NCBI GenBank assembly: GCA_964469155.1
Contig: CAYXXU010000006.1
Coordinates: 7,591-71,590 of the forward strand
From: an uncultured Bacteroidales bacterium
GTDB taxonomy: Bacteria; Bacteroidota; Bacteroidia; Bacteroidales; CAIWKO01
Length of the DNA stretch: 64,000 nt
Direction of reading: 5' to 3'
Part shown: piece by piece, positions 658 through 61,236 of the stretch
How the letters are laid out: each line of letters begins with the position of its first letter
How positions within the stretch are numbered: position 1 is the stretch's first letter
Notes under the pieces: generated by a model
Database searches by the model: none
Seen by the model: the letters and a program-made list of their open reading frames with translations, nothing else
Told to the model about the DNA's origin: nothing
Made by a program: the position numbers and the translations under genes

Positions 658-951
658 CCTTTAAGGGAAGTCACCACTCCTTTAATAGTAGTCGCCACTC
701 CTTTAGGGGAAGTCGCCACTCCTGTATGAGTAGTCACCACTCCTTTAAGAGTAGTCACCACTCCTTTAAAGGAAGTCACCATTCCTTTAGGGGAAGTCAC
801 CACACCTTTAAGGGAAGTCACCACTCCTTTAAGGGAAGTCACCACTCCTTTAAGAGTAGTCACCACTCCTTTAAGAGTAGTCACTAATCCTTTAAGGGAA
901 GTCACCATTCCTTTAAGGGAAGTCACCACTCCTTTATGGGAAGTCACCATC
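658..951. repeat. Tandem array of 14 x 21-bp units, consensus CCTTTAAGGGAAGTCACCACT
   Basis: Units counted by eye at 658, 679, 700 ... 931, with substitutions but no indels. Confidence 0.95.
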
Positions 952-1129
952 CCGATCAGAACAACAAGTAAATGTTCATTGATTGCTATAAGAAACAGTA
1001 AAACTGCAATACACTCCTTCCTATCCTTTTTTGCAGTTATTTTGCATAGTGAATGATAAATGTCAGAAAATGATTGACCTTGTGGCAGAGTTTTTGACAT
1101 GACTTACGTGCTAAAATCAAATGAATTAA

Positions 1130-1339
1130 ATGAACACTTATATTTTTAAAACCAGTATCAATTGCAACAGTTGTCTTTCCCGTGTGAAACCTATTCTTGA
1201 TCAGGAAAAAAGAATTACTTCATGGGAAGTTGATCTGGATAATCCTGACAAGATTTTGAAAGTGGTTGCAGAAGATATTAAATCTTCTGAAATTATTGAC
1301 ATTGTTGACAACACAGGATTCGAAATTGAATTAATTTAA
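1130..1339 (+). CDS. Heavy-metal-associated (HMA) domain protein, CopZ-like chaperone
   Basis: 69 aa with INCNSC (CxxC) motif and HMA-like pattern. Confidence 0.85.
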   Translation: MNTYIFKTSINCNSCLSRVKPILDQEKRITSWEVDLDNPDKILKVVAEDIKSSEIIDIVDNTGFEIELI

Positions 1340-1364
1340 TAATCAAAAAATAAAAACTAAAATT

Positions 1365-1736
1365 ATGAAAACAAAAAATCTATTGACCTTTTCTCTGATG
1401 ATGACCATATTAATGATGGTCTCAGCCTGCGGTTTTTCACAAAAGAACACCAAAGAAATAAAGATACAAACCTCAGCCCAGTGCGGGATGTGTAAAGACA
1501 GGATAGAAGGAGCTTTTGCCTATGAAGCCGGTGTAAAAAAATCGACACTTGATCTGCAAACCAAAGTTCTAACTGTGGTATATAACCCGTCGAAAACCGA
1601 CGAAAATAAGATTCGTACAATCATTAACAATCTGGGTTATGATGCTGATGATACGAAAGCAAATATGGCTGCTTATGAAAAACTTCCGGCTTGCTGCAAG
1701 AAGCAAGAAGGTGATCACAGTAATTGCAAGCATTAA
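1365..1736 (+). CDS. Exported HMA-domain metal-binding protein (MerP-like, possible lipoprotein)
   Basis: Signal peptide ending VSAC, QCGMC motif, C-terminal LPACCK. Confidence 0.85.
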   Translation: MKTKNLLTFSLMMTILMMVSACGFSQKNTKEIKIQTSAQCGMCKDRIEGAFAYEAGVKKSTLDLQTKVLTVVYNPSKTDENKIRTIINNLGYDADDTKANMAAYEKLPACCKKQEGDHSNCKH

Positions 1737-1821
1737 TCCTGTATTAGTTTTAAGACTGGGGAAACCCTACAAGTAAAAGCTGACACTCTGACTATACAAT
1801 TCTATAGCAATTTACCCCCTT

Positions 1822-4257
1822 TTATTTAATCTTAAACCTCAATCCGGCATATATCAATCGTCCTGTAGTTGGCCCCCAGGTCATACCGGTATCGAAATGG
1901 GTATGATAGGGCAAAAAGGCTTCGGTGATAGGGTCTTTTTGTCTGAAGTTGAGCAGGTTTTCCACACCCAGGTAGCAATCGATTTCGTGCTTGAACCTTT
2001 TAGTGATCTGGGCGTTGAATATTGTATAAACAGGTGAATGGGTATAATCACGTTTCACTATACCAGGCATTTTAGTTTGATCACTAATGCGCGAGGGTCC
2101 ATTCAGTTGCACCGTTAAGTCGAATTTCCACTTCTCGAACCGCGTGGCATAGCTCATCGAAAGCAACCCCTTGTATTTAGGTGTAAATGCTTTGGTCTGT
2201 AATATACCCTGGGTGGTCTGCCTAACATCGTTTACTCTGAAAGCTGTCAGAATCGTGAAACTCTTCACGGGCTCGAAAGAAAATTGAATTTGGTAGCTGT
2301 TCGAGAACGACTTGCCGGCGCTATCATTCAGGTTATAGAAATTAGCAATGGCAGGATCCGTATCAAGATCCACCACTATCTGATTAAAGAAATCGGTACG
2401 ATAAACATCGATATCTATCTCGGCCTTTCTTTTTGCGATCTGAAATTCCTTCACCAGGTTCATACCATAATTAGCCGCCATTTCTTGATGGAGTGGACCT
2501 TGAATCTGTATTACCTTTTGTGAGGCGAGTATAGATAAATTTTCAGAGATGATATTGGCAGAGCGATAACCCAGTCCTGCCGAGGCGCGCAGGGTAAGAT
2601 TCTTTACGATCTGCCATTTTATATTGGTACGAGGAGTGAAAAATAAACCATAGCGGTTGCTGTAATCCGCCCTTAGACCCAATATCAAGGAAAACTTATC
2701 GACATGGCTGTAAGTATATTCAAAAAATGCACCTGCCACAGCTTCTGACCGGTTTAGTGAATAGATGACAGGATCTAACCTGGTGGAAGGCGACAAAGTA
2801 ACTACATCGTGCATGCTCACAGGGCTGCCTTGAGCTAACGTCTGGTAGATATAAGTGAATTGTATCTGCTTATAGTTCTCAATAAAGTCATCGTATAGGA
2901 AACTGGCCCCTGTAGAGAACTTATGGTTGGTGTTTCCGAAAATTGACGCATAAATAATATTACCATACAGGCTTTTTTCTATGCCCAGATAATGGTTCAC
3001 TCCAAAATAACCTTTTTGGTCATGGTATATTCCTGATAATATCACGCCCACACTCTTCCAGGGTTTACCGGGAAACATAAATCCGTTCTTCGAGAAAACT
3101 TCGGCACGGCTTGTCTTCATACCAAATCCATAAGGGAAGGTCATGCTGTTGATGGCGGCTGTATCCAGGTTAAAGGTTTTCTTGTCGAAATCAGTCGTTC
3201 CACCGTTTCTGTTCTCATACAAATATTTGATACCCATTTGCAAACAAAGTTTATTAGGGACAGAATAATCCCAACGATTAAAAACATTGATGGTGGATAA
3301 TTTGGGAATATCCAGAAAATTATCGGGTTTCTTCGAATAAACCTGATTCCCTTCACTGTCTTTGACCAGGCTCATATCATCCACATTCACTGCATTGATG
3401 GTCGTTGAATCAATTTTATTGATTTCCTTATTGAAATAATCGCCATGAAGCATTATCATGGTTGTGAGGCGTTCGCTCAGGTGAAAAGAAGCATTCAGGT
3501 TGGCCTCAATACGGGTTTTATCATTTCCGTAAATATTCACAAAGAACTTTTCAGAATGGGCAGGTTTTTTATATTCGATATTGATCTGTCCGGTCACTGA
3601 TTCATAACCGTTGATCACCGAGGATGTCCCTTTGGATATCTGAATAGACTGCATCCATGAACCGGGAATATAATTCAGGCCATAGGATGAAGCCAATCCG
3701 CGTATCAGCGGAATATTTTCGGTTTGAATCTGGCTGTAGATCCCGGATAAACCCAAGAGTTGAATTTGTTTGGCCCCGGTGATGGCATCGCTGTATGATA
3801 CATCGACCGAAGCATTAGTCTCGAAGCTCTCCGAGAGATTGCAACAGGCGGCTTTGTATAATTCGGTGGTAGTTACTATTTGTGTCTTGCGCGGATCCAT
3901 CTTCGATATATAGGTTCCATCCAGCTTATCATTTATTTCTACCTGTGACAGTTGCAGATTGCTTTGGGTCATTTCGTGAGTGATCTTCGATTCTAAGGTA
4001 GAAACCGGCAGTGTATCTGTCTTATAACCGAGCATGCTAAAGATGAGACGGTAATCGGTGATACCCTGCCAACTGATCTTAAATTTTCCGGATGCATCCG
4101 TCGAGGTGGCTTTGGAGGTGCCGTGCCAATATATGGTCACACCCGGTATTGGTTTTTTATCTTTGCTATCATAAATCACACCTGAAATGGATTGTGAAAA
4201 AGCTGCGGCAGTATTGATTAATATTAGAATAGCTGCAATTATTATCTTGTTTTTCAT
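1822..4257 (-). CDS. TonB-dependent receptor (metal-associated type) with N-terminal carboxypeptidase-regulatory-like domain
   Basis: Signal peptide, plug region AACCNLSESFETN, beta-barrel C-terminus GRLIYAGLRFKIK. Confidence 0.9.
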   Translation of the reverse strand: MKNKIIIAAILILINTAAAFSQSISGVIYDSKDKKPIPGVTIYWHGTSKATSTDASGKFKISWQGITDYRLIFSMLGYKTDTLPVSTLESKITHEMTQSNLQLSQVEINDKLDGTYISKMDPRKTQIVTTTELYKAACCNLSESFETNASVDVSYSDAITGAKQIQLLGLSGIYSQIQTENIPLIRGLASSYGLNYIPGSWMQSIQISKGTSSVINGYESVTGQINIEYKKPAHSEKFFVNIYGNDKTRIEANLNASFHLSERLTTMIMLHGDYFNKEINKIDSTTINAVNVDDMSLVKDSEGNQVYSKKPDNFLDIPKLSTINVFNRWDYSVPNKLCLQMGIKYLYENRNGGTTDFDKKTFNLDTAAINSMTFPYGFGMKTSRAEVFSKNGFMFPGKPWKSVGVILSGIYHDQKGYFGVNHYLGIEKSLYGNIIYASIFGNTNHKFSTGASFLYDDFIENYKQIQFTYIYQTLAQGSPVSMHDVVTLSPSTRLDPVIYSLNRSEAVAGAFFEYTYSHVDKFSLILGLRADYSNRYGLFFTPRTNIKWQIVKNLTLRASAGLGYRSANIISENLSILASQKVIQIQGPLHQEMAANYGMNLVKEFQIAKRKAEIDIDVYRTDFFNQIVVDLDTDPAIANFYNLNDSAGKSFSNSYQIQFSFEPVKSFTILTAFRVNDVRQTTQGILQTKAFTPKYKGLLSMSYATRFEKWKFDLTVQLNGPSRISDQTKMPGIVKRDYTHSPVYTIFNAQITKRFKHEIDCYLGVENLLNFRQKDPITEAFLPYHTHFDTGMTWGPTTGRLIYAGLRFKIK

Positions 4258-4353
4258 TTTTTGCCTTATTGGTTAAATGTTAGTTGACAGATTCCTTAAT
4301 GGGATCTGTAAAATTTAAAAAGTAACAGTTATGCTAAACCCTTTTAAAAAGAG

Positions 4354-4800
4354 TTAATAAGGCAAGGCAATTTTTATATTTTGAAAGAAATGAAGCAGTT
4401 TTGTGCCGAATAAAATAAGGGGAGGGGGCTGATAGTCGGTCAAAACCTTTATCTGTGTGATTTCAACCAGCTTTGTTTGAATCCATTGAGCGCCCGGAAG
4501 GCAATATAATACTTTGATAATGATGTTAGTTCTGAAGGTCTGACTGAAAAAAGTGGTGATGCGAGAATAAGTGAAATCATTTTTGCAGCATGGTATTTTG
4601 TCGATGGAATGCGAATCAGGCAAGGACGCAGGATGGAATGAAAGGCAGCATGATTCCACATTTCCAAACAGTTCAGGGTATAAGGCCACTTTAGTGGTGC
4701 CCGACATGCGGCATGAATGTCTCTGAAAAGATATGCCTGTAGTGCTGATGGCAAAAGCTATCAAACAAATTATAACAAGCGATTTCTTAACCAGGTTCAT
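4354..4800 (-). CDS. HYC_CC_PP-like protein
   Basis: HSC...SCC...PCCK...QPPP motif order; directly upstream of the TonB receptor; TATCTTTG promoter at 4818-4825. Confidence 0.7.
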   Translation of the reverse strand: MNLVKKSLVIICLIAFAISTTGISFQRHSCRMSGTTKVALYPELFGNVESCCLSFHPASLPDSHSIDKIPCCKNDFTYSRITTFFSQTFRTNIIIKVLYCLPGAQWIQTKLVEITQIKVLTDYQPPPLILFGTKLLHFFQNIKIALPY

Positions 4801-4976
4801 TTTTCTCTATTTAATTGCAAAGATACAATGATTTTCCGGAATTTCACTCTTTAAGATATCAAACTATATCTTCTAATGCCTTATAAAGGTAGAATGTTTT
4901 ATAGATGAAGAAGTATTGTAAATACTGTAAGGAGATTGTTTTGAGAAAGTTTCTTGCTATGTCAGGAAAAAGAAAA

Positions 4977-6179
4977 TTAGGTTATTGGATGTCCTTTGCC
5001 ACATCGGGGACAATAAGCCATATCCGCTGTAAAATCGGCAGGTATCTTAATTTTCATACCACAAGTGCAATTAATAAAAGTATAGTTATCGACCCTCATC
5101 ATAATATCATTCATATCGCGGGTAGTGGTTTTATTATCCATAACTTCGGCCGCAATTCCCATTCTCATTCCAATATCCTCATTCTTGCTCAGTTCGCCTT
5201 GAGGAATCACATTCTTTTTGCCGGTTATCTTGCTGAAAGCGTTTTGATAGTTAACCAAACCAGCCCCTCCTGACATTTCGCGCAGTATGCGGATACGTTC
5301 GGATATTGGGGGATGCGTGCTACTCAGATCAGACACCTTCATTCCCTTTTTCTTCAAAGGATTGCAGATATACATAGGAGCGGTTACCTTATTAGCCATA
5401 GGCATATCAATAGTTGAACCGGAAATCTTCTCTAAAGCAGAAGCCAGTCCTTCGGGATATCTGGTCAGGCGAACTGCTGAAGCATCGGCCAGGTATTCGC
5501 GTTTGCGCGAAATAGAGAAGTATAACAACTGGGCCAGAATCGGGGCCAGAATGGCAAACACCAAAGCGATCACCATGATGATGATCTGAGCCTGTCCACC
5601 CTCTTTTTTACCACCTCCTACTCCTCTAAAAAGCAAACTTCGCAAAAATATTTCCGAAATAATTACGATAGCTCCCAGCATCACACCGGCAAGGGTCATG
5701 AAACGCACGTCACGATTAATCACATGCGACATTTCGTGAGCCATCACACCCTGTAATTCGTCGCGGTTGAGTTTGGCAAGCAATCCGGCCGTAACGGCCA
5801 CAGCAGCTTTATCCGGACTCATACCTGTTGCAAAAGCATTGGGGGCATCGGTATTGATGATATACACCTTCGGCATTTTGTTCATGCCTGCCGCTATGCG
5901 CATTTCGTCGACCACGTTGAACAACTGAGGATGCACATCGGGAGTGACCTCCTTGGCATTGCTGGCAGCCAGCATGATAGAACTTCCTGCTGTCACGGCC
6001 ACCAACGACATTATAAACCAAACTGCCAATGCTATGATTATGCCGAAAATGGCTCCACTCCCATTACCTTCAGGATCGAATCCAAGTCCGATAACAAAAC
6101 CCAGCGCAATCAGTATGATTCCCATGATGACAAACAGGAAGACCGATTTGCGTTGATTGGCTTTAATGAGTTCCCACAT
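4977..6179 (-). CDS. htpX: M48 family zinc metalloprotease HtpX-like with C-terminal Zn-ribbon extension
   Basis: NAFATG, HEMSH (HExxH), SRKREYLADA and STHPP motifs; tail CTC...CPRC. Confidence 0.9.
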   Translation of the reverse strand: MWELIKANQRKSVFLFVIMGIILIALGFVIGLGFDPEGNGSGAIFGIIIALAVWFIMSLVAVTAGSSIMLAASNAKEVTPDVHPQLFNVVDEMRIAAGMNKMPKVYIINTDAPNAFATGMSPDKAAVAVTAGLLAKLNRDELQGVMAHEMSHVINRDVRFMTLAGVMLGAIVIISEIFLRSLLFRGVGGGKKEGGQAQIIIMVIALVFAILAPILAQLLYFSISRKREYLADASAVRLTRYPEGLASALEKISGSTIDMPMANKVTAPMYICNPLKKKGMKVSDLSSTHPPISERIRILREMSGGAGLVNYQNAFSKITGKKNVIPQGELSKNEDIGMRMGIAAEVMDNKTTTRDMNDIMMRVDNYTFINCTCGMKIKIPADFTADMAYCPRCGKGHPIT

Positions 6180-6197
6180 ATTCCAAAGGGTTCTAAC

Positions 6198-6755: not shown

Positions 6756-6776
6756 AATTTTTCCTCCTGTTTTTTA

Positions 6777-10544: not shown

Positions 10545-11177
10545 ATGGCTCCATTAGATTCAGATTTGAAGTACCGTGCATTGGTTGTAATTGGAATGCC
10601 CAAAAAAGTGAACGACTATATTCCCTGGGCAATAGCCACGCACGACAAAATGAAGGCAAACCCGCGTTTTGCAGCTTTACTGCCCAAGCTGGCCACCTTT
10701 GAAACGGATACAAAGAACCTGCGCGATGCACAAAATGGCTGTACTTCAAAGCCTCCTACCGTAAGCACCGAAACCCGAAACTATTATTGGAGATTAAGCA
10801 AAACCGATATCAGGATTCTGAAAGTCAATGTACAGGAAATGGCCGACCTTGACCCACGAAATGCTTCGGTTATAATTACAGATGCCGGTTTTGAAGTCAA
10901 ACAGGTGGCTATACGTCATAAGCAAAAAAACATGGCGGTTGATGGAGCCGAGGAAGGCGAAGTGAAATTGATTGCCGCAGGTCGTGGTCCTCACAACTGG
11001 CGCGTGAGCTATGACCAGGAAAACTGGACCGTACTATTAGCCAGCAAAACCAGTTTAAAAATATCCAAAGGCAATACGCCCGGCGAGGTGCTGTATTTTC
11101 AGAACAGCTTGCTGGTTGATGAAAGCAAATCGCCTGAATGGAGCCCAAGCATCAGGGTCGTAGTTAAAAAACATTAA
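10545..11177 (+). CDS. Hypothetical protein, helical N-domain plus FN3-like C-domain
   Basis: TACATTTG promoter at 10506-10513 before ATG 10545; beta-rich C-terminus with NWRVSYD..W, TPGEVLYF, EWSP. Confidence 0.75.
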   Translation: MAPLDSDLKYRALVVIGMPKKVNDYIPWAIATHDKMKANPRFAALLPKLATFETDTKNLRDAQNGCTSKPPTVSTETRNYYWRLSKTDIRILKVNVQEMADLDPRNASVIITDAGFEVKQVAIRHKQKNMAVDGAEEGEVKLIAAGRGPHNWRVSYDQENWTVLLASKTSLKISKGNTPGEVLYFQNSLLVDESKSPEWSPSIRVVVKKH

Positions 11178-11270: not shown

Positions 11271-11501
11271 TTTCAAATTACCGAACCATCATTTCAATTC
11301 ACCGAAGGATCGTTTCAAATCATCGAGTGGTCGTTTTAAATTACCAAAGGGTTGTTTTAAATCATCGAGCAGTCGTTTTAAATTACCGAACGATCATTTC
11401 AAATCACCGAACGCTCGTTTCAAATCATCGAGTGGTCGTTTCAAATTTCCTAAGGGTTGTTTACAATTTCCGAACGATCGTTTTAAATCACCGAACCTAA
11501 A
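11271..11501. repeat. Tandem array of about 11 x 21-bp units, consensus TTTYAAATCACCGAACGATCG
   Basis: Units at 11271, 11292 ... 11481 with no indels. Confidence 0.9.
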
Positions 11502-11730
11502 AATGAAATCACCGAGCCTTAATTTAAAATTTAGTAGCGATGATGTAAAACTAAGGCATTGGGATGCATTGGGAGGCATGATGAGCAGAAGGGTGAAAAG
11601 AAGTTAAATAAAATCCACTTTGAATGATTTGTTGAAATGTTTTTCTTCTTTTGAGGTATATATTTTGTCGATGAAGTTTGTCAAAGAATAGGAGGAAGTG
11701 AGTAGTTGATAACGAATAGTTAATAGTTTA

Positions 11731-11833
11731 AAAAGGCTTGTTCCGAACAGGGCAGGCCTCTTACTCCGATCGGGGAAATGCTTTCCCCGTGTTCTCTTAA
11801 CAGAAAAGGCTTGTCAGCAAAGGGCAGGCCTTT
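11731..11833. repeat. BIME/REP-like triple-hairpin element
   Basis: Direct repeats AAAAGGCTTG-N8/9-AGGGCAGGCCT at 11731-11759 and 11804-11831 flank hairpin CGGGGAAA-TGC-TTTCCCCG (11771-11789). Confidence 0.65.
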
Positions 11834-11937
11834 AACTTTTAGGCATTCAGCTACAAATCCAAAAGATATTTTCCCTCCCCTTTTGCCAATCGGCCAATAA
11901 TCATTAATTTTGAAGAAGATTATTCAAACAGCAAAAC

Positions 11938-13680: not shown

Positions 13681-13695
13681 ACCCTGATATTCCTG

Positions 13696-19570: not shown

Positions 19571-19618
19571 GGTCAGGTTGTTTTTGAGAGGGTTTGGGAG
19601 GGCGAAGATAAGGAAAAA

Positions 19619-19716
19619 TGAGCCACTGGCCATGAGCCAATAGCTAATAGCCATGAGCCAATAGCCACAAGCCATGAGCCACTTGCCACGAGCCATAAGC
19701 CATGAGACAATAGCCA
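19619..19716. repeat. 14 x 7-bp tandem repeat (NNAGCCA)
   Basis: tgagcca ctggcca tgagcca atagcta atagcca ... read directly. Confidence 0.9.
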
Positions 19717-19737: not shown

Positions 19738-20010
19738 GCGCACAAGGCATCGACAATTGCGCACAGGGGTTGTACGGTCGCGCACAAGGGTGGTGCAGTT
19801 GCGCATGACGGTGATGCAGACGCGCACAAGAGTGATGCAGCGGCGCACAGAGGTGATGCAGTGGCGCACGAGGTATCGACATGACACTTTGTCATAGTTG
19901 CAGGAAACTTTGTCATAGATGCAGTCGCGCACAAAGGTGATGCAGTCGCGCACACGACCGATGCGGTTGCGCACAGGGGTGATGCAGTCGCGCACAAGAC
20001 CCGTGCAGTC
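19738..20010. repeat. Tandem array of 13 x 21-bp units, consensus GCGCACAAGGGTGATGCAGTC
   Basis: Units at 19738 ... 19990; units at 19885 and 19906 diverge but keep the register. Confidence 0.92.
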
Positions 20011-20257
20011 GCGCGGAGCTAACTACAAGGATTGAGTTAATTATTAGTGATTTATGATTTTGGGTTTTTATTGAAAAATGCAGTTTGAATGGGAAATTGA
20101 TAAAATTTGAAGAAAAATGTCTGAACCCTGCCTAAAGGGCGGCAGGCAGGCGCTGATTAAAATGATTTGAATGATTAAGATGATTCAGGCGGAGCCTGAA
20201 AGAATAGAACGACGGCGGTGGAACCGCCGCCGAACCGGGCAACATCAACACTTTCGG

Positions 20258-21980: not shown

Positions 21981-22019
21981 TATTTTGTTGTAATCCATTA
22001 AACAGGCAGAGAGATTGTT

Positions 22020-22148
22020 GGGCGATGTGCTGTTAATGAAATGGAAGGCTGTTTGCCCCCAGCGCCAAGGATGGTAGTGAAAAGCCCGGAATGGAGCGCA
22101 GCGGAATGAGGACTTGTAACGGACAGCCTGACCCGAAGGGGGGCGCCC
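22020..22148 (+). repeat. Dispersed ~130-bp structured element, copy 1
   Basis: Aligns by eye with the reverse complement of 60829-60961. Confidence 0.85.
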
Positions 22149-31264: not shown

Positions 31265-32506
31265 TCAGATTTTAAATTTGTACAGTTTCTTGTACTCCTG
31301 ATTATACTTCTCCTTATAGAGGAAATAAACTACATCATCATAAACTTTTATCTTTTCGATAAAAACAAAAGCAGGTATTGAAACTGACTGAACAATTTTA
31401 CCGCTATTGATATCTACTTCCTTTAAAGTAGAAAGACCATTTTTGCGAAATACGAAGTATACTTTTGAACCTGCGTTGTCAACCAGCAATTCACCGGCAA
31501 AGCTTTTATCCTGCTGAAAACTGATATCGTATTTCCCTATTGGGTCAGCATTTGCGGAATATTTCTCAATTTTTGATTCAATAAAATTAAACAATACCAG
31601 GGTATCCTCCAAACAAACCAAGGGTGCATAGACCGGCCGCAGCATGATCAATTGCTGAAACCTGATATCTTCTTCCTTTCCATCGAAATAATATCCCTTC
31701 CGGTTTCTTTTAAGGTTATCGGCATCAACTATTTTTTTAAAACAATTCAGGGTATCGTTGATTTGCTCGTAATTAAAATAATCGATTTCCTGATGGTTGT
31801 TGTACGATCCCTTCAGATAATACCGGGTACCCGACTGCCCCAACACTACATTGTTCACGGCGTCATAATCGGCGATATCGACCGGATCGGAAAGGTATAA
31901 TCCGGTGGAATCAAAATTCACTGCCCAGGCAACCGTTTTGGTATAAAGAAAAACTCTTCCTGTATAGTCTTTACATAGCTTAACCGGTTTGGAAACTTCC
32001 ACTCGTGAAAGCGTATCGCCATTAAGATCAATGAGCAAAAGCACCGGAGTCAGGAAACTTTGGTTTTCGAATGCCAAAACTATCATCCTGTCGGCATAAA
32101 ATTCAAAATCCATAATGTGGTAATGTTTATCAGGCATCACCTGTAACGGAACATTCACAGAAATTTCTACCGCTTTCAGATCAAAAGATTTGCTTGTTAA
32201 AACAAATTTTTGGGTATTTCGGACATCGGTTATCAAAACCTCTTTCGTATAATACGAAATGTGCCGTAGTTGAAGTTTGGCAGGCAGGCTGCTGTGCGAA
32301 AAAGAAAAAAAACCATTTTCGTCCGTTACTGCCTTGGCAGAATTATCATCATTGATGATTTCAACCTGTTGCACAGGCGACCGGGTTACTGAGTCGTAAA
32401 TATATCCCCTGATCTGAACATTCTGGGATAGTGCAACAAAATTGATGATACAACTTAATAAGACGAGTATGGTTTTTTTTCTGATCATGGCAAAAAAGAT
32501 AATCAA
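31265..32506 (-). CDS. Exported protein with carboxypeptidase-regulatory-like N-domain and probable beta-propeller C-region
   Basis: Signal peptide, IRGYIYDS..TDENGFF..HISY, then beta-rich repeats. Confidence 0.7.
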   Translation of the reverse strand: MIIFFAMIRKKTILVLLSCIINFVALSQNVQIRGYIYDSVTRSPVQQVEIINDDNSAKAVTDENGFFSFSHSSLPAKLQLRHISYYTKEVLITDVRNTQKFVLTSKSFDLKAVEISVNVPLQVMPDKHYHIMDFEFYADRMIVLAFENQSFLTPVLLLIDLNGDTLSRVEVSKPVKLCKDYTGRVFLYTKTVAWAVNFDSTGLYLSDPVDIADYDAVNNVVLGQSGTRYYLKGSYNNHQEIDYFNYEQINDTLNCFKKIVDADNLKRNRKGYYFDGKEEDIRFQQLIMLRPVYAPLVCLEDTLVLFNFIESKIEKYSANADPIGKYDISFQQDKSFAGELLVDNAGSKVYFVFRKNGLSTLKEVDINSGKIVQSVSIPAFVFIEKIKVYDDVVYFLYKEKYNQEYKKLYKFKI

Positions 32507-32536
32507 CCCATTAATAAAACTATTATTGCAAGTGCT

Positions 32537-33232
32537 TTACCTGTCGAAAAAGCTCTTGGTTTCTATCACAATGCAGCCACCGGTAAAATCGCCATACTGT
32601 GCAGGAACACCCCCAGTATAAACCGCCAGGCTACCAATAGCACCGGAGGGAACATGAGCCTGTCCGTCAGATGATTTTACCCCATCTACGATATACACAA
32701 AATTATCGTTTCGTGAACCTCTGAAATAAATTTCGTCACGTTCGGTCACATAAATTTCCGAAGTCAGTTTACTGAGAACACTTACAAGATTTTTGTTTCC
32801 GGCCATGTCTTTCAATTCATCCCCGCGGATAAAAGTTATCGGGATAGGTCTGATCAACGGATCTCTTTGACCAAAAATCTCAGCAGGTTTGCCGTCAATC
32901 ATTATGCCTTCGTTTGACACATAAAGATCGTCCATACGGGTCATATTTCCGGGATTAACTACCACATCATTAATAGTATCCGATTTATATCCCATATAGG
33001 ATATAATCACAGTGTACTTGCCCGACGAGAGGGATTTAACCGAATAATCACCGTTATGATCCGTAACAGTTCCTGTGGTGATTATTCCGTTCTTTACAAT
33101 AACATAGGCGCCGGGAAGAGATAGTTTTGAAGCATTATCAAACAATCTCCCTTTAATCTCACCGGTTCCCTGTGCATAAGTTTGTGCAATCAATATTATT
33201 ATTGCTGCACCAAAAGCGATTAATTTTTTCAT
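32537..33232 (-). CDS. Carboxypeptidase-regulatory-like domain plus TonB plug domain, no barrel
   Basis: GEIKGRLFD..TDHNGDY; YFRGSR..YIVDGVK..YTGGVPAQYGDFTGGCIVIETK, ends right after the plug. Confidence 0.8.
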   Translation of the reverse strand: MKKLIAFGAAIIILIAQTYAQGTGEIKGRLFDNASKLSLPGAYVIVKNGIITTGTVTDHNGDYSVKSLSSGKYTVIISYMGYKSDTINDVVVNPGNMTRMDDLYVSNEGIMIDGKPAEIFGQRDPLIRPIPITFIRGDELKDMAGNKNLVSVLSKLTSEIYVTERDEIYFRGSRNDNFVYIVDGVKSSDGQAHVPSGAIGSLAVYTGGVPAQYGDFTGGCIVIETKSFFDR

Positions 33233-33313: not shown

Positions 33314-33368
33314 TCAGTTAACGGTAGGATAATTTCAGTTAACGGTAGGTTTTTGCCAGTTAACGGTA
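33314..33368. promoter_or_regulatory. Three CAGTTAACGGTA direct repeats at 21-bp period, LytTR-type operator
   Basis: Copies at 33315, 33336 and 33357; resemble the AgrA-type ACAGTTAAG-N12 box. Confidence 0.65.
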
Positions 33369-38254: not shown

Positions 38255-38995
38255 CTACCAAATCAATCCCGACCAGGGTTGGCTAAAGGGCCCGAAGGTT
38301 TTCCTGCTGCCTTTAAAGCGTTTGCGGGCCAAATACCACGCACGCATGCCTTCCTGTTCAGCATCAAATATTCGGATGTAGTATCCCCTCTTCACTTCAC
38401 CATCGAAAGTAAATTCCTTTACATCAGGGGCCGTTTTCACCGAAGCTTCTTTCACCACCAGGTACACTTCAATGGCATCCACCCCTATGTCGAGCCCTTT
38501 ATGATTGGCACCGGGAGTCATAACGCTGCTTCGGTGCATCAAATGTTTCATCCGGGCTATACCTCCCTCCACACTTACATTGTGACCCGCGCCATCGGCC
38601 CCCGAAGCAGGAGTTTTAATCAGATCAGGAATCCTGAGGCCCATATCTGATTTTTGTGCATCGGTCACCAATGGATTGTTGCGCAAGTACCGGCTGATGA
38701 ATAAGCGCAGGCTGGTATCAGTCGGAATGTCTTTTTTGCCGAATTCATAGGCCTTGCGTGCGCTATTTTTCCGTTGGGTATCCGCCTGATCAAATATTCT
38801 GCTTGCCACCCTGGGCCATGCACTGTCCCACTCCTGCTTTTTTTTGCCGGGGGTATTGGTCAGCAGCACCCATTCAGTTAGTGCGGCAGGTGTAAGGTCC
38901 CAACCGGCCATATACACGTTGGCCCGGGTTACAAAATTATTCTGCCATTCGTTGAACGACAGGTCGGAATGAGGGATAAAGTCTTTTCTAACCAT
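38255..38995 (-). CDS. Hypothetical protein, helical N-domain plus FN3-like C-domain
   Basis: DFIPHSD..F..W..NF, NP.VTD.QK..MGL, C-terminal AWY.AR..GPFSQPW. Confidence 0.78.
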   Translation of the reverse strand: MVRKDFIPHSDLSFNEWQNNFVTRANVYMAGWDLTPAALTEWVLLTNTPGKKKQEWDSAWPRVASRIFDQADTQRKNSARKAYEFGKKDIPTDTSLRLFISRYLRNNPLVTDAQKSDMGLRIPDLIKTPASGADGAGHNVSVEGGIARMKHLMHRSSVMTPGANHKGLDIGVDAIEVYLVVKEASVKTAPDVKEFTFDGEVKRGYYIRIFDAEQEGMRAWYLARKRFKGSRKTFGPFSQPWSGLIW

Positions 38996-39190: not shown

Positions 39191-39400
39191 GCTACCTGAT
39201 GATATCAGGTAGCTACCTAATTATATCAGATCATACCCTGATTAATTTATATTACGGTATGTATTTATTATATAATGCTCTTGTATTATCATATCGTAAC
39301 CTGTAATTTTTATATAATGGTCTGATATTTTCAGGTTTTAACCTGTTATATTTAGATTATTATCTGTATCAATCAGGTTGTGATCTGATTTATACAGGTA
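39191..39400. repeat. Degenerate array of 10 x 21-bp units with palindromic ACCTGA-N5-TCAGGT core
   Basis: Units at 39191, 39212 ... 39380; (C/T)CTG at positions 5-8 in 7 of 10 units and CAGGT at the unit end in 4. Confidence 0.7.
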
Positions 39401-39510
39401 GGAATAATTGTGAACGAGACTGCTTTGATGGGTTTGTGTAAATGAATTACAATATCTGAAGTACCTGAAGCAATCAAAACAATTGAGGCACTTCCTGAAA
39501 GTCTTGACAC

Positions 39511-51275: not shown

Positions 51276-51662
51276 ATGATAATAATAAGTGACCTGATTA
51301 CGGTTGAAGAGTGCGCTAAACGTTGCAAGGTGCAGCCGCGCGCCATTTATGCAAGGTTGAAAAACGGAACAATTTCCGGAATTCGTATTGGTAACTATGC
51401 TTTTGTGAATCCCCTTTCGTCGCCTCCCAAGCGAGTTATGAACGAATTTGATAATCTGCATGTGCCTCCCTATAAGCTTCCTGATAATTTGAAGCCTGCT
51501 GACCTGATATCGCTTGGCACTTTTGTACATAAAAAAAAGATGCGGGGCGACTGGATCTATACCCAGGCCATGCTCGGAAAACTGCGTTCGGTGATAATCT
51601 GTGAGGTGGTTTTTGTGCCTTTATCTGAGGCAGAAGAGATTCTGAAATATAAGCCAAAATAA
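51276..51662 (+). CDS. Small protein with two tandem Xis/MerR-like winged-HTH modules
   Basis: LITVEECAKRCKVQPRAIYARLKNG.I..IRIG..AFV and LISL..F..KK.M....IY.....GKL..V.I..V.FV. Confidence 0.6.
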   Translation: MIIISDLITVEECAKRCKVQPRAIYARLKNGTISGIRIGNYAFVNPLSSPPKRVMNEFDNLHVPPYKLPDNLKPADLISLGTFVHKKKMRGDWIYTQAMLGKLRSVIICEVVFVPLSEAEEILKYKPK

Positions 51663-51765
51663 AACCGAATTTCTATACACTACTTTCACAATTTAACTTT
51701 TCATCGAAAAAATGCAGTAACGCTCAGTCAATGACTAAACAGTAAAAAATGTGAAAGTATTCGTA

Positions 51766-52007
51766 TGTACACCGGATGACCCCGGAAATTTTCTGAAGTC
51801 ATTGCCTGCACACTGGCATACTTTCGGAAAATTTCTGATGTTATTCTTTGTACACCGGCAGGCGTCCGGAAAAAATCTGAAGTTATAACGGGTACACCGG
51901 CATACGCCCAGGAAATTTCTGATGTTATCCCATGTTCACTATCATACGTTCGGAAAATTTCCGGAGTCGTCCAATGTCCAAGAACATACGTTCGGAAAAA
52001 ATCCGTT
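51766..52007. repeat. Tandem array of about 5.5 x 42-bp units
   Basis: Units at 51783, 51825, 51867, 51909, 51951, 51993; consensus CGGAAAATTTCTGAWGT-N9-TACACCGGCATACGTT. Confidence 0.85.
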
Positions 52008-52038
52008 GTCATACAGCCTTATTTAAAATAAACGAAAA

Positions 52039-53552: not shown

Positions 53553-53556
53553 AAAA

Positions 53557-54099: not shown

Positions 54100-54178
54100 T
54101 GATAAATTCTTGAATTGCTAAATTGTTACATGGTTTCATTGTTCTATTGTTGGAAGGATAAATCACCTGATGCCCACC

Positions 54179-54325
54179 AATGACCACTTTTGACCATCAA
54201 TGACTATTAATGACCACTAATGACAATCAATGACAATCAATGACAATTAATGACCATCAATGACTACTAATGACTGCTAATGACTATCAATGACTATTAA
54301 TGACAATCAATGACTATTAATGACC
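54179..54325. repeat. 15 x 10-bp tandem repeat AATGACNNYY
   Basis: TGAC falls every 10 bp from 54181 to 54321; followed by TAAAAGCC/TAAAAGTC run to about 54365. Confidence 0.95.
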
Positions 54326-54354
54326 TTCCTCCTAAAAGCCTAAAAGTCTTCAGC

Positions 54355-55893: not shown

Positions 55894-55904
55894 AAAGAAA
55901 GTTC

Positions 55905-56237: not shown

Positions 56238-56263
56238 GATCTTACGTTTTTAAATTTTGTGGA

Positions 56264-56572: not shown

Positions 56573-56679
56573 ATTAAATCGTTGTTCAAAATTAATAAAA
56601 TACCTGTTCGTAAATTTTTTCTCATTTCCGGCCCTGCACAATATTTAATGCCTAATTTCGTTTGCTTATAAAAAGGTCT

Positions 56680-57516
56680 ATGAAGAAATTACTGTTTCTT
56701 ATCGTTTTGGTTACCGCATCTTTCTGCCTCAGCGCGCAGATCAAGGTTGCTGATAAAACCTATGTCGATGCTTTTTTGAAAAGCAAAACCTATATTGTTC
56801 TCGACGAAAATCCTTTTTCGGTTTTGAATTCTTTTCTAGACAGCAGCATGAAAGTGATGTGGAAGATCACTCCTTATGAAGTGATTACAGGCGAACAGTT
56901 CGAGCAAAAAATGGGCGATCCCAAGAGCTCATTTATGTATGTTTCCCTTGCCCAATTCAGCAAAACAGAGTCTTTCGATTATCTGGTGCTAAATCTTTCT
57001 ATGGGTGATGCCTCCAAAAACCTGAACGCCCTTCACGACCTCTGTGTCATTCCCATGGCATACGAAGATGTGGATGAGGACAGTTACGAGTATAAATTTG
57101 CTGCTTTCATCAAATTCGCTCAGTATTTCATAAAATACTCGGAACAGAATCCCGGGAAAGACATCAGACAGGTAGTGAAGGAAAATCAAACCGAACTGAA
57201 GAATTACGAACTGTGGCTGACGGCTGCCGATCTTGCCACTGATGCCAATACCATTACTAAGATCAGCAAAGTGTATCCTTATCCGGTGAAGATAGTAACT
57301 CAGGACGATATTCAGAAAGCCATCGATGAAAGCAATCCCAAAGTGGCTTTCCTCCATAAGGTGGGCCCCGAAGAAACCGCTGGCGATGGCGCCCTCTGCC
57401 TGAAATTTATCCTTACGGCCCAAGAAGGGAAACCCTTGTACTTCGATTACCACAAGATCACCTCTTCAAAACCCGATGCTTTTTTGCTGGACGATTTTAA
57501 GAATATGGCCAAATAA
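56680..57516 (+). CDS. Exported hypothetical protein
   Basis: Signal peptide MKKLLFLIV..SAQ; long ORF with coding-like composition. Confidence 0.75.
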   Translation: MKKLLFLIVLVTASFCLSAQIKVADKTYVDAFLKSKTYIVLDENPFSVLNSFLDSSMKVMWKITPYEVITGEQFEQKMGDPKSSFMYVSLAQFSKTESFDYLVLNLSMGDASKNLNALHDLCVIPMAYEDVDEDSYEYKFAAFIKFAQYFIKYSEQNPGKDIRQVVKENQTELKNYELWLTAADLATDANTITKISKVYPYPVKIVTQDDIQKAIDESNPKVAFLHKVGPEETAGDGALCLKFILTAQEGKPLYFDYHKITSSKPDAFLLDDFKNMAK

Positions 57517-57662
57517 TCCTTTCTCCTGCTGCTTTTTGTACTTTACCCGGGGCTTATCTTTGAATAAGTTGATGTTGCTATAATTGTGTATTTTTGCAAA
57601 CCATAAATTATCAAATCTTAATGCTGAAATCTGAAATCATAAATCTGAAATTTTAATCCACC

Positions 57663-59339
57663 ATGTCCGACGATAAAAAAATAATTTTCTCAATGGTGAA
57701 CGTCAGCAAAACGTTCCCTCCCAATAAACAGGTTTTAAAAGACATCTACCTGTCATTTTATTATGGTGCCAAGATAGGTGTGATCGGTCTCAATGGTTCC
57801 GGTAAATCTACATTATTAAAGATCATTGCCGGCCTTGAAAAGTCTTTTAACGGCGAAGTGGTGTTTTCTCCCGGTTATTCAGTAGGTTTTCTGGAACAGG
57901 AACCCAAACTCGATAATTCCAAAACCGTGAAGGAGATCGTTCAGGAAGGGGTACAGTCCATTGTCGATATGCTCAAAGAATATGAAGAAGTGAACAACAA
58001 ATTTGCCGAACCCATGACCGATGATGAGATGACCAAACTCATCGACCGCCAGGGACAGCTTACCGAATTATTGGATCAGCACGAAGCCTGGGAACTCGAT
58101 ACCAAACTCGAACGCGCCCTCGATGCTCTGCGTTGCCCCGAGAGTGATACCATCATCGAAAACCTTTCGGGAGGCGAACGCCGCCGCGTGGCTTTGTGCC
58201 GTTTGTTGCTTTCCGAACCCGATATTCTCCTGCTCGATGAGCCTACCAACCACCTCGATGCCGAATCAGTGGAATGGCTGGAACATCACTTGCAGAATTA
58301 CAAAGGAACCGTCATTGCTGTCACCCACGACAGGTATTTCCTCGACAACGTGGCTGGTTGGATACTGGAACTAGATCGTGGCGAAGGCATTCCATGGAAA
58401 GGGAACTACACTTCCTGGCTCGAACAGAAAACCAAACGTATGGCATCCGAAGAAAAGACCCAGAGCAAACGTGCCAAGACCCTCGAACGGGAGTTGGAAT
58501 GGGTGCGCATGGCTCCTAAGGCCCGTCATGCCAAAGGCAAGGCAAGGTTAAAAGCTTACGAAAGCATGCTCAACGAAGATGTGAAGCAGAAGGACGAACG
58601 CCTCGAGATATTCATCCCCAACGGCCCCCGTTTGGGCGATGTGGTCATCGAAGCTCAGAATATTTCCAAAGCCTACGGCGATAAATTGTTGTTCGAAAAC
58701 CTATCCTTCATGCTCCCTCCGGGAGGCATTGTGGGAGTTATTGGGCCTAACGGTGCCGGAAAGACCACCCTTTTCCGTCTAATGATGGGCCACGAAACTC
58801 CCGATACAGGCACTTTCAAGGTTGGCGAAACCGTCAAACTGGCCTACGTCGATCAGGCGCATGTGGACATCGATCCCGAAAAAAATGTCTGGGAAGTCAT
58901 CACCGAAGGCAACGAAAACATCATTCTCGGCAACCGCACCATGAACTCCCGTGCCTATGTATCGCGCTTCAACTTCACCGGACCCGATCAGGGCAAGAAA
59001 GCCGGAGTGCTTTCCGGTGGGGAGCGCAACCGCCTCCATCTGGCGCTTACCCTGAAACAGGAAGCCAACGTGCTCCTGCTCGATGAGCCTACCAACGATA
59101 TAGATGTTAACACCCTCCGCGCTCTCGAAGAAGGCCTCGAAGGCTTTGCCGGTTGCGCCGTGGTCATCTCCCATGATCGCTGGTTCCTCGACCGTATCGC
59201 AACGCATATACTGGCGTTCGAAGGCGAATCCGAAGTCTATTTCTTCGAAGGCTCCTACTCCGAATACGAAGAAAACAAAATGAAACGCCTCGGCGATGTC
59301 GGACCCAAAAGAATTCATTATAAAAAACTCAAAGGATGA
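57663..59339 (+). CDS. ettA: Energy-dependent translational throttle ABC-F protein
   Basis: GAKIGVIGLNGSGKST, LSGGERRRVALC, ELEWVR, two ABC domains; promoter TATTTTTG near 57588. Confidence 0.96.
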   Translation: MSDDKKIIFSMVNVSKTFPPNKQVLKDIYLSFYYGAKIGVIGLNGSGKSTLLKIIAGLEKSFNGEVVFSPGYSVGFLEQEPKLDNSKTVKEIVQEGVQSIVDMLKEYEEVNNKFAEPMTDDEMTKLIDRQGQLTELLDQHEAWELDTKLERALDALRCPESDTIIENLSGGERRRVALCRLLLSEPDILLLDEPTNHLDAESVEWLEHHLQNYKGTVIAVTHDRYFLDNVAGWILELDRGEGIPWKGNYTSWLEQKTKRMASEEKTQSKRAKTLERELEWVRMAPKARHAKGKARLKAYESMLNEDVKQKDERLEIFIPNGPRLGDVVIEAQNISKAYGDKLLFENLSFMLPPGGIVGVIGPNGAGKTTLFRLMMGHETPDTGTFKVGETVKLAYVDQAHVDIDPEKNVWEVITEGNENIILGNRTMNSRAYVSRFNFTGPDQGKKAGVLSGGERNRLHLALTLKQEANVLLLDEPTNDIDVNTLRALEEGLEGFAGCAVVISHDRWFLDRIATHILAFEGESEVYFFEGSYSEYEENKMKRLGDVGPKRIHYKKLKG

Positions 59340-59612
59340 GGAAGACGGAAGTCCGAAGACCGGAGAAGGAATTTGAAAATTATACAATTATACAATTTGA
59401 AAATTAATTAACCGGCTGCATGTAATAATGACTATTAATGACAACTAATGACCATAAATGACAATGAATGACAATGGATGACAATAAATGACCATCAACC
59501 TGTCCCGTACATAAAATGTCGGGATGACCATTAATGACGACCAATAACCATTTCCTAAAAGTCTAATAACCTAAAGCCTAAAAGCCTAAAGTCAAAACCC
59601 CTAAAAGCCTAA
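59340..59612 (+). repeat. Ordered mosaic of short tandem repeats
   Basis: GGAAGAC 7-mers, then AATTTGAA/AATTATAC 8-mers, AATGAC 10-mers (with 26-bp hairpin insert), AAAGCCT/AAAGTCT run. Confidence 0.85.
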
Positions 59613-59615
59613 CCC

Positions 59616-60779
59616 ATGTCAAAGATCCTTATAATCGACGATGAACGCAGCATCCGCAGTACCCTGCGCGAGATATTGGAATACGAAAAATACCAGGTCG
59701 ACGATGCCGCCGATGGTGCCGAAGGTCTGCAATGTGTCGACAAAGAAAAGTACGACGTCATTTTGTGCGACATCAAGATGCCCAAAATGGACGGTGTCGA
59801 TGTCTTGAAAGCCATCATTCAGAAAACCGATACTCCTGTCGTCATGATATCCGGCCATGGAAACATCGAAACCGCTGTCGAATGTATCAAACTCGGCGCT
59901 TACGATTATATTGCCAAGCCCCTCGATCTCAACCGCCTTTTGATAACCCTGCGCAATGCCCTCGACAAATCCTCCCTCATCACCGAAACCAAGGCCCTCA
60001 AAAAGAAAGTCAGCAAAACCTGGGAAATGGTCGGCGAATCTCCGGCCATTCGCCGCATCAAGGATATGATCGAACGCGTGGCTCCCACCGATGCCCGTGT
60101 GCTCATCACCGGCGGCAACGGCACCGGCAAAGAACTCGTCGCACGCTGGCTCCACGAAAAAAGCAACCGTTCCGCATTTCCTTTCATCGAAGTCAATTGT
60201 GCGGCCATCCCCTCCGAACTCATCGAAAGCCAGCTCTTCGGCCACGAAAAAGGGTCCTTCACTTCGGCCATCAAGCAGCGCAAAGGCGATTTCGAGCAAG
60301 CCGACGGCGGCACCATCTTTCTCGACGAAATCGGCGACATGTCTCTTTCAGCCCAGGCCAAGGTATTGCGTGCCCTGCAGGAAAACAAGATCACACGCGT
60401 TGGCGGAGAAAAAGACATACCCGTCAACGTGCGTGTGCTGGCTGCCACCAACAAAAACATTCCCGAAGAGATCGCCGCCCACAACTTCCGCGAAGACCTC
60501 TACCACCGTCTCAGCGTCATACTCATCGAGGTCCCCGCCCTCAGCGAGCGCACCGACGACATCCCCCTCCTGGTCGATCATTTCGTCCGCGAAATCTGCC
60601 AGAGTCAGGGCAGCCCCCTTATCCGCGTACAGCCCTCCGCCCTCGACGAACTTAAAAAGATACCCTGGACCGGCAACATCCGCGAACTCCGCAACGTCGT
60701 CGAGCGCCTCATCATCCTCTGCGACCGGGAAATCACCGGTGAAGATGTCAAAATGTACGCCCACCCCTTACGTCGGTAG
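59616..60779 (+). CDS. Sigma-54-interaction-domain response regulator (receiver plus AAA+), no obvious HTH
   Basis: Receiver (ILIIDDE, CDIKMP), GGNGTGKE, FLDEIGD, WTGNIREL; GSFTSA in place of GAFTGA. Confidence 0.92.
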   Translation: MSKILIIDDERSIRSTLREILEYEKYQVDDAADGAEGLQCVDKEKYDVILCDIKMPKMDGVDVLKAIIQKTDTPVVMISGHGNIETAVECIKLGAYDYIAKPLDLNRLLITLRNALDKSSLITETKALKKKVSKTWEMVGESPAIRRIKDMIERVAPTDARVLITGGNGTGKELVARWLHEKSNRSAFPFIEVNCAAIPSELIESQLFGHEKGSFTSAIKQRKGDFEQADGGTIFLDEIGDMSLSAQAKVLRALQENKITRVGGEKDIPVNVRVLAATNKNIPEEIAAHNFREDLYHRLSVILIEVPALSERTDDIPLLVDHFVREICQSQGSPLIRVQPSALDELKKIPWTGNIRELRNVVERLIILCDREITGEDVKMYAHPLRR

Positions 60780-60828
60780 ATACGAATCATTTACTATTCG
60801 TCATTCACTATAAACAATTCACTTATTT

Positions 60829-60961
60829 GGGCGCCCCCTCCTGCGTTGGGCCGGGCGTCCGCTACAAGTCCTCGTTCCGCTACGCTCCACTGTGGGCTTT
60901 CCGCTACCATCCCTGGCGCTGGGGGCAAACAGCCTGCCTCTTAATCAGAGGCACATCGCCC
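60829..60961 (-). repeat. Dispersed ~130-bp structured element, copy 2 (inverted)
   Basis: Reverse complement matches 22020-22148. Confidence 0.85.
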
Positions 60962-61089
60962 GTCAATCATCCTCAAATCCTGACAGGGTGACTATGAAAA
61001 GGCATGTGTGTAGGAAATCCACCCTGTCAATAACACAAATGTCCCAATTGTTCCACTAAATTTCTTATAAAATTACATAACCGACCGCT

Positions 61090-61236
61090 ATGTTGCAAAA
61101 TCCTTACGCCATGTTGCTAAATCCTTAAGCCATGTTGCAAAGACCGTACGCCAAGTTGCGGAGACCGTACGCCAAGTTGCTAAATCCGTGCGCCAAGTTG
61201 CAAAGATCGTGCGCCATGTTGCAACAACCGTGCGCA
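61090..61236. repeat. Tandem array of 7 x 21-bp units, consensus AWGTTGCAAADWCCGTRCGCC
   Basis: Units at 61090, 61111 ... 61216 with no indels. Confidence 0.92.

Follow-up and report, generated by a model that had tools for sequence, protein, structure and literature searches.

Regulators of the LytTR family bind imperfect 9-bp direct repeats, [TA][AC][CA]GTTN[AG][TG], that lie 12-13 bp apart (PMC5600425, PMC2766830), and a 9-bp repeat with such a spacer results in a period of 21-22 bp. Plasmid iterons (R6K, RK2, F and P1) and the centromere-like sites parC, tubC and parH are composed of direct repeats of ~17-22 bp at a spacing of about two helical turns; such arrays are bound cooperatively by multiple molecules of a single protein and are linked to the gene for this partner. 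Heptamer repeats of the short tandemly repeated repetitive (STRR)/TAACTGA type have been described in cyanobacteria, Beggiatoaceae and some Bacteroidetes (PMC4679880), and this was the only paper that our literature search for 21-bp intergenic arrays in Bacteroidetes yielded. Here we analyzed a 64-kb segment of a Bacteroidota chromosome (contig CAYXXU010000006.1 of an uncultured Bacteroidales bacterium, hereafter the window), which carries several tandem arrays, A1 to A7, with a period of 21 or 42 bp (Table 1). We tentatively read them as non-coding, DNA-level direct-repeat arrays in a 21-bp register that most likely serve as multi-site platforms for sequence-specific DNA-binding proteins, and we place this reading just short of an even chance. 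One of the arrays, A2, is kept together with its gene across species, and at least some of the arrays are therefore probably multi-site platforms on which DNA-binding proteins dock, and not junk or remnants of genes.

A2 lies behind an orphan gene whose product has 11 homologues with 62-99% identity. The genomic contexts of four of them were fetched. Three contigs, L180 (NCBI metagenome-assembled genome GCA_964599365.1), L181 (JGI) and L182 (ENA), encode an identical homologue with 72% identity and hence represent one other species, and the fourth, L178, encodes a homologue with 68% identity. In L180, L181 and L182, the orphan gene is followed by a terminator hairpin with a T-run and then by an array of 13 x 21 bp with the consensus TTTCAAATTACCGAACGGTTG. 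The terminator was recognized by inspection; the sigma-70/terminator scanner, which is unsuited to Bacteroidota promoters, missed its 9-nt loop. A related array also follows the homologue in L178, where the contig stops after 2.4 units. The initial annotation had proposed that the arrays spread as gene-plus-array units, and for this orphan family the homologues with 68-72% identity do again precede a 21-bp array. The A2 consensus sequences of the window and the other species share 18-19 of 21 bases, whereas identity between the orphan genes is 54% at third codon positions and 86% at second ones. Unit subtypes such as ..ACCGAAGGGTTG and ..ACCGAACGATCG are common to both species. The gene neighbors, however, differ: a type IX secretion system (T9SS) cargo gene and PGM flank the module in the window, whereas in the other species a LytTR gene precedes it and a gene for an unknown protein of 578 aa, or another gene, follows it. 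Together, these comparisons indicate that A2 is a conserved gene-plus-array module present in different genomic contexts and that purifying selection acts on the DNA sequence of its units.

The inside of A2-type arrays changes much faster than their surroundings. L180 and L181 differ at 1 of 630 positions in the orphan gene and at none of 120 positions after the array, but at 26 of 276 positions inside the array, which has the same length in both; the L182 array is likewise 276 bp long. Only short Logan contigs contained identical or near-identical pieces of the window; their source runs are SRR1008329x (100% identity) and ERR13731078. Run ERR13731078 represents a second strain, 96.8-99.4% identical to the window, and its A2 (contig L179) differs from that of the window at 13 of 252 positions in the array and at none of the 508 positions in the remaining spacer, again with equal length. 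Between strains with identical flanks, the array content thus differs by 5-9%. The content of A2-type arrays therefore turns over fast, most simply by unit-to-unit conversion, with the register and the unit number (12-13) held. A constant length with changing content is not the behavior of a neutral variable-number tandem repeat (VNTR), whose copy number should vary between strains and whose sequence should be unconserved. A2 shows neither property, and A5 and A7 are identical in the window and the second strain.

The protein encoded next to A2 is no obvious binder of the array. Its description as helical in the N-terminal part and FN3-like in the C-terminal part stands on a poor AlphaFold model (predicted local distance difference test score of 56) and weak Foldseek matches (E about 2e-3). 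It has no match in Pfam, PHROG, NCBIfam or the PDB sequences, and neither does the orphan next to A4; searches for both in viral contigs and in 72,556 plasmids returned nothing. No DNA-binding domain was found in the A2 partner in these domain and structure searches, and the earlier suggestion that the neighboring orphan is the cognate protein is unsupported. We also considered whether it might be a hidden LytTR domain or a relative of the A4 orphan, and comparison ruled out both.

A LytTR regulator is a better candidate for the binder of A2 than the orphan. A gene encoding a 123-aa LytTR protein (PF04397) lies directly upstream of the orphan gene in L180, L181 and L182 (326-697 in L180 and 3517-3888 in L181). 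The reverse strand of the unit in these relatives reads ACCGTTCGG, and it matches the LytTR consensus perfectly in 3-9 of the 13 units, in one fixed phase and at 21-bp spacing (column-permutation p = 0.006-0.02). In addition, A7 agrees with the consensus at 8 of 9 positions (p about 0.04). LytTR is thus a good candidate binder for A7 and the A2 family. Three AGTACT motifs with a spacing of 17-18 bp precede the LytTR gene itself and may be another operator. On the far side of A2, a conserved block resembles the Bacteroidota -33/-7 promoter (TTTG / TAnnTTTG) and may be a promoter that reads away from the array. Between A2 and PGM, the region 11700-11840 contains a GGGGAAA/TTTCCCC hairpin as well as two hairpins that resemble each other (AAAGGCTTG...CAGGCCTTT); it has no Rfam match and may be a leader or small RNA.

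The 21-bp register was evaluated with Tandem Repeats Finder, run identically on the window and on a control set of 160 other Bacteroidota loci (2.33 Mb). Six of the seven long arrays in the window have a period that is a multiple of 21, the exception being a 10/30-bp family, as opposed to 23 of the 156 arrays with a period of at least 12 in the control loci. The control loci contain no 21-bp array of 90 bp or more, whereas the window has one about every 9 kb. In the control loci, just two repeats whose period is a multiple of 21 reach this length, a 42-bp array of 2.3 copies within a coding open reading frame (ORF) in L021 and a 147-bp repeat. The enrichment of 21/42-bp periods, for which the initial annotation had proposed to test, is therefore far beyond chance, and the commonest periods in the control loci are likewise 7, 14 and 21. 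Its remark that the units tolerate many substitutions with essentially no indels also held: at least 187 independent substitution states exist among the units, for which ~9 indels would be expected at the between-strain indel:substitution ratio of 1:21, and the probability of observing none is about 1e-4. Derivation of the units from diverged heptamers was ruled out, as they lack a 7-bp substructure: self-identity at lag 7 is 3-7 of 21 (chance level), compared to 17 of 21 for a true heptamer array at 19618-19716. This heptamer array (ATGAGCC/AATAGCC, ~13 copies) occupies the same spacer as A3, between that array and the GH3 start codon.

Intergenic arrays with periods of 22-23 bp, 4.5-5.6 copies and a GTTCG-like core were also observed in other Bacteroidales (L151 9624-9747, L147 8488-8586 and L141 357-461). 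Examples are AAGGGTTCGTTTCATGCGCTCA upstream of PGM and another array directly after an extracytoplasmic function (ECF) sigma-factor gene. Arrays at two-turn spacing may thus be a wider, low-density feature of Bacteroidota.

Table 1. Repeat arrays and associated features of the window.
Feature	Position	Strand	Description	Tandem Repeats Finder
A1	658..951		14 x 21 bp, consensus CCTTTAAGGGAAGTCACCACT; between divergent DUF6660 gene (177..500, minus) and HMA-like gene (1130..1339, plus)	658-949, x13.9, 87% match, 0 indels
A2	11271..11532		12 x 21 bp, consensus TTTCAAATCACCGAACGGTCG, 105-bp higher-order repeat	11271-11530
A3	19738..20022		~13.5 x 21 bp, single unbroken register; between divergent GH3 gene (start about 19563, minus) and T9SS cargo gene (20218, plus)	19757-20014 (21/42)
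A4	39191..39403		10 AT-rich 21-bp units, counted by eye	39260-39354 (42)
A5	51766..52017		6 x 42 bp, core ACGT(T/C)CGGAAAATTTC; convergent genes	51766-51961, 42 x 4.7
A6	61086..61253		8 x 21 bp, consensus CGCCA(T/A)GTTGCAAAAACCGTA; between convergent sigma-54 activator gene and FeoB-associated gene	61086-61249 (21/63)
A7	33314..33368		CAGTTAACGGTAGG x3 at 21-bp spacing, upstream of tatA; operator-sized	
Orphan gene, A2 partner	10545..11177	plus	210 aa, helical N-terminal part, FN3-like C-terminal part	
Post-A2 block	11604..11654	plus	TAAATAAAAT..TTTG.ATGATTTGT..AAAT.TTTTT.T.CTTTTGA; conserved across species, ~70-120 bp after A2	
Orphan gene next to A4	38255..38995	minus	246 aa, A4 on its 5' side; unrelated to the A2 partner	
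HTH-like gene next to A5	51276..51662	plus	128 aa, two excisionase-type helix-turn-helix (HTH)-like segments; TIGR01764 E = 0.005, below cut-off	
ORF over A1	618..1100	minus	160 aa, (GVVTSLK)n, mechanical ORF	
ORF over A5	51728..52012	minus	94 aa, mechanical ORF	

Tandem Repeats Finder recovered all six arrays of the initial annotation, and the small A7 was added as a seventh. Their units share a common build, in which a conserved block of 9-16 bp adjoins a variable linker. The variable parts are 5-9 bp long and switch among a few shared states. In A1, for example, a 16-bp conserved block is followed by a variable block of 5-6 bp. A3 is anchored by GCGCAC and (G/T)ATGCAG and contains two odd units in its middle, and its register is unbroken, with GATGCAG anchors at 19750 and 19918 exactly 8.0 units apart. 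The A4 units each contain the inverted half-sites ACCTGAT and ATCAGGT, which form perfect 9+9 palindromes in the edge units and are degenerate in the interior ones. The consensus sequences had been described as unrelated, and this is mostly so: self-BLAST of the window gave no cross-match between arrays and no common flanks or mobile-element ends. Alignment by eye, however, showed that A2 (reverse strand) and A5 share CGTTCGG.AA.TTT, ~14 of 21 bases. The arrays occupy divergent (A1, A3 and A7), co-directional (A2 and A4) and convergent spacers (A5, A6 and the L165 array described below), and hence are not one kind of promoter element. Short-read contigs break inside A1, inside A2 and beside A6, as expected if these long repeats are real. 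In the second strain, contig L165 carries an unrelated 11 x 21 bp array, GTGCAGGATGGTAATGTACCC, at 357-587 after the sigma-54 activator gene, in the place of A6. This difference indicates a rearrangement breakpoint directly after that gene.

Several other explanations have to be weighed against protein-binding platforms. The initial annotation had offered decayed heptad-peptide cassettes as the alternative to a DNA-level role, that is, small coiled-coil-like proteins with seven codons per unit or their remnants, and we regard this as scarcely credible. The period is indeed a multiple of 3 and 7, some frames give hydrophobic a/d-type heptads, similar heptad-repeat ORFs occur in public data, and ORFs with an ATG or GTG start cover A1, A5 and the L165 array (88 aa). 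However, when alignment columns were shuffled among units, which keeps the column composition and breaks codon combinations, every array had the number of stop-free frames expected from the shuffles; for A5, a single open frame is unremarkable (P about 0.27). The three ORFs are thus uninformative. HMMER matches of the A1 ORF among 1.84 billion representative proteins cover the repeat only (residues ~45-158) and belong to unrelated long repeat proteins, its N-terminal 45 aa have no homologue in this set, and all its Pfam matches are below the cut-off. No homologue of the A5 ORF was found either, and we judged that neither ORF is a real gene. All six arrays had been called intergenic, and A1 and A5 fall within these mechanical ORFs. 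As had been noted for several arrays, A3, A4 and A6 lack starts or contain many stops, and the heptad frame of A2 is interrupted by two stops in the window and has a conserved start in none of the species. Throughout the A2 family, three of the six frames are open, since the unit consensus has no stops in those frames. Variable positions form contiguous blocks and show no third-codon-position pattern, so that the proposed comparison of variation per codon position also speaks against peptides. With no coding signal, and with A2 traveling with its orphan gene across species, the DNA-level alternative is the one supported, and we conclude that the arrays are non-coding. A role of the transcribed repeats as a protein sponge, type III antitoxin-like RNA or untranslated-region element is very improbable as well. 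A1, A4 and A5 gave more stable RNA folds than their shuffles (z = -4.1, -7.8 and -4.5), and A4 lies 5' of an orphan gene in an arrangement resembling ToxI-toxN. Yet A2, for which alone conservation is proven, gives no such signal (z = +0.5) and sits between a terminator and a promoter-like block that reads away from it. Furthermore, a fold signal is expected of any repeat that contains a palindrome, no Rfam family matched the arrays, and the 21-nt units are far below the 34-45 nt of type III antitoxin repeats. Palindromic cores had been ascribed to most units, but significance was reached only in A4, in its edge units (p<0.001). The palindromes of A2 (p about 0.1) and A5 (p about 0.08) are not significant, the CGATCG of A2 becomes CGGTTG in the relatives, and those of A1, A3 and A6 are at chance level. 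The arrays are therefore direct-repeat arrays in the first place and not palindrome arrays.

Minisatellites without function, neutral or selfish, which a genome prone to slippage or unequal exchange would produce as by-products and in which 21 bp reflects a seeding or duplication bias, are somewhat unlikely. Tandem arrays number 34 per 100 kb in the window, as opposed to 7-9 in other Bacteroidota, including many intergenic repeats of 7, 8 and 10 bp that the initial annotation had not listed, as well as repeats of 14 and 30 bp. A 10-bp array differs by four units between the strains, the sigma-54 activator locus carries different arrays in the two strains, arrays of mostly unrelated sequence occur in all kinds of spacer, convergent ones included, and a relative with 72% PGM identity has neither the orphan nor A2 at its PGM site. 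These observations favor minisatellites. They would not, however, be expected to keep the consensus, subtypes and unit number of A2 at 72% protein identity and 54% third-position identity, nor to maintain equal length among the three contigs of the other species and between the two strains here despite internal differences of 5-13%. The strong indel deficit and the clustering of sizes at 8-14 units, instead of a decaying length distribution, also speak against them, and slippage is not known to favor exactly 21 bp mechanically. A sequence-independent structural role, in which in-phase bends produce curved or flexible segments for nucleoid proteins or supercoil loops, is quite improbable. It would account for periods of 21, 42 and 10/30 bp, all near whole helical turns, and for unrelated sequences with a similar total length of ~210-290 bp in all spacer types. 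A pure shape role, however, would not need the conserved sequence of A2, A3 and the L165 array have no A-tracts, and repeats of 7 and 8 bp are just as abundant in the window.

Under the protein-binding reading, each array would bind a protein that recognizes direct repeats 21 bp apart, with the LytTR family as the leading candidate class. A period of two turns places all sites on one face of the helix, as it does in LytTR operators, iterons and partition sites, and adjacent protein molecules can touch there. The arrays would have originated from operators with two or three repeats, of which A7 may represent the unexpanded state, and would have grown to 8-14 units through slipped-strand events or unequal exchange between repeats in a genome prone to tandem duplication. 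If each array was seeded by a different operator, the unrelated sequences and the common period would both be explained. Selection for protein binding would then retain the register, the unit core and, in A2, the unit number, while gene conversion within the array would keep reshuffling the unit variants. Protein binding, its extension to A1, A3, A4, A5 and A6, and the origin by expansion from operators are what we infer from these data. A broader version of this idea is distinctly doubtful: the arrays could be a genome-wide class evolved in this lineage, length-controlled at ~10-14 units in a strict two-turn register and each with its own unit sequence, in which every array provides a high-capacity docking or decoy platform for a different direct-repeat-binding regulator, of the LytTR type or another. 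In such a class, content would be reshuffled by conversion within the array, register, core and length would be selected, and the whole would be a chromosomal analogue of iterons or centromeres for regulation or nucleoid organization.

A number of observations weigh against binding platforms, and in particular against LytTR as their general partner. Cross-species conservation was demonstrated for A2 alone; it is the only array for which conservation points to a function, and the others could be neutral minisatellites. The main rival reading is accordingly that A2 stands out as an exception among arrays that are mostly neutral. The genome is full of other short tandem repeats, which makes a purely mutational origin plausible. 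A2 of the window itself matches the LytTR consensus weakly (7.25 of 9, p = 0.2), and so does A5 (7.3 of 9, p = 0.14), whereas A1, A3, A4, A6 and the L165 array show no match (p = 0.12-0.87). No LytTR gene was found in the window by tblastn and Pfam searches. The spacing of LytTR operators, with 12-13 bp between the cores, is reproduced in all arrays by the exact 21- or 42-bp period, but their placement, with two repeats just before the -35 element, is not: the arrays have 8-14 repeats, and A5, A6 and the L165 array are flanked by convergent genes. Even in A2, ~70-120 bp separate the last unit from the promoter-like block. Having 8-14 units in every type of spacer is not what promoter elements do. 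Finally, single copies of the unit cores are absent elsewhere in the 64 kb, so that no regulon is visible there.

The gene content of the window includes T9SS C-terminal sorting domains, CarboxypepD_reg/TonB receptors, a GH3 enzyme with a lipoprotein-type signal peptide, tatAC, trkAH, feoB and four tRNAs, the last being the only Rfam matches. A search with PGM revealed no close relative among the GTDB representative genomes (best identity 64%) or in the JGI metagenomes (best identity 72%), and in the relative with 72% identity the region upstream of PGM is not syntenic with the window. The orphans next to A2 and A4 belong to two families that are unrelated to each other. The gene next to A5 had been described as a tandem-HTH gene; only one weak excisionase-type match stands behind this. 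The TonB-dependent receptor at 31265-33232 (minus) is split into 32537..33232 (CarboxypepD_reg + Plug) and a 413-aa remainder (31265..32506), which may be a frameshift or a pseudogene.

Other repeats in the window form groups of their own. Two composite leaders, at 59340-59612 and 61706-61914, consist of [GAAGACC]n, [TTGAAAAT/AATTATAC]n, [AATGACnnnT]n and [CCTAAAAG]n in this order, and end 3-10 nt before the starts of the sigma-54 activator gene (59616, plus) and the FeoB-associated gene (61696, minus), respectively. They are mutually inverted and share 68 bp at 88% identity. The decamer array (AATGACnnnT)n was also observed at 54179-54324 in the window, at 7264-7371 in L165 and at 3053-3098 in L181, with the four-unit difference between the two strains mentioned above; the family is thus also present in the related species with the A2-type module. 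An element resembling a miniature inverted-repeat transposable element (61275-61375), with the ends AATGTCGCCCC(G/T)CTGGGGCT, adjoins A6, and a copy in the opposite orientation lies beside the array of the other strain (L165 ~650-760). This element yields spurious ORFs of the 'MSPRWG/VAPLGL' type. A GC-rich dispersed repeat of ~120 bp occurs at 22013-22134 and 60848-60968, inverted and with 82% identity.

If the binding-platform reading is correct, an operator of the familiar two-repeat type can grow into a multi-site array of 250 bp, and bacterial chromosomes could hold many iteron-like elements, possibly titrating regulators or shaping the nucleoid. The A2 module offers a concrete case in which this can be tested, and it may explain mechanistically why unrelated sequences have a 21-bp period. 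In practical terms, the arrays break short-read assemblies and seed spurious 'heptad-repeat' ORFs in protein databases.

Several known repeat systems differ clearly from these arrays. In type III toxin-antitoxin systems, the array precedes the toxin gene, and the repeat units are 34-45 nt long. A2 resembles ToxI and CptI in that a terminator separates a tandem array from a small orphan gene beside it. However, the order of gene, terminator and array, the 21-nt units and the fold z of +0.5 led us to reject this type for A2. A CRISPR array was likewise rejected, because the units are contiguous and their variable parts of 5-9 bp are shared states, with no unique spacers. The 21-bp arrays have the repeat size and two-turn spacing of iterons and centromere-like sites, but they are located on a chromosome among housekeeping genes, and many unrelated arrays coexist instead of one per replicon. 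A plasmid iteron or replication origin was rejected, since the housekeeping and orphan neighbors have no Rep domain, and neither DnaA boxes nor an AT-rich unwinding region was observed; so was a par centromere, since no parA, parM or tubZ and no small ribbon-helix-helix or HTH adaptor domains were found in the flanking genes.

The STRR heptamers are also abundant between genes in particular lineages, in some cases directly upstream of start codons, and the 7-, 8- and 10-bp repeats of the window are of that kind. The 21-bp units, in contrast, are long and complex without a 7-bp substructure, and one array is conserved with a gene. VNTR minisatellites (e.g., MIRU-type) similarly are intergenic, have diverged units, break assemblies and differ between strains. 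However, their copy number varies, whereas A2 has a fixed length, changing content and a consensus kept across species, and all arrays here have one period. There is also a close likeness in architecture to the operators of LytTR-family regulators (AgrA, AlgR, ComE and HdrR), with a 9-10-bp core, a 12-13-bp spacer, a period of 21-22 bp and one helix face; the A2-type unit of the relatives matches their consensus perfectly and has an adjacent LytTR gene, and A7 is of operator size. These operators, however, have two repeats ~10 bp before the -35 element as opposed to 8-14 that are often promoter-distant or convergent, and most arrays of the window are off consensus, with no LytTR gene found there. 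Phased direct-repeat binding sites and bacterial minisatellites are thus each already known, and what is unusual here is the array density, the strict 21-bp register over unrelated arrays of 8-14 units, and a conserved module of invariant length with fast turnover.

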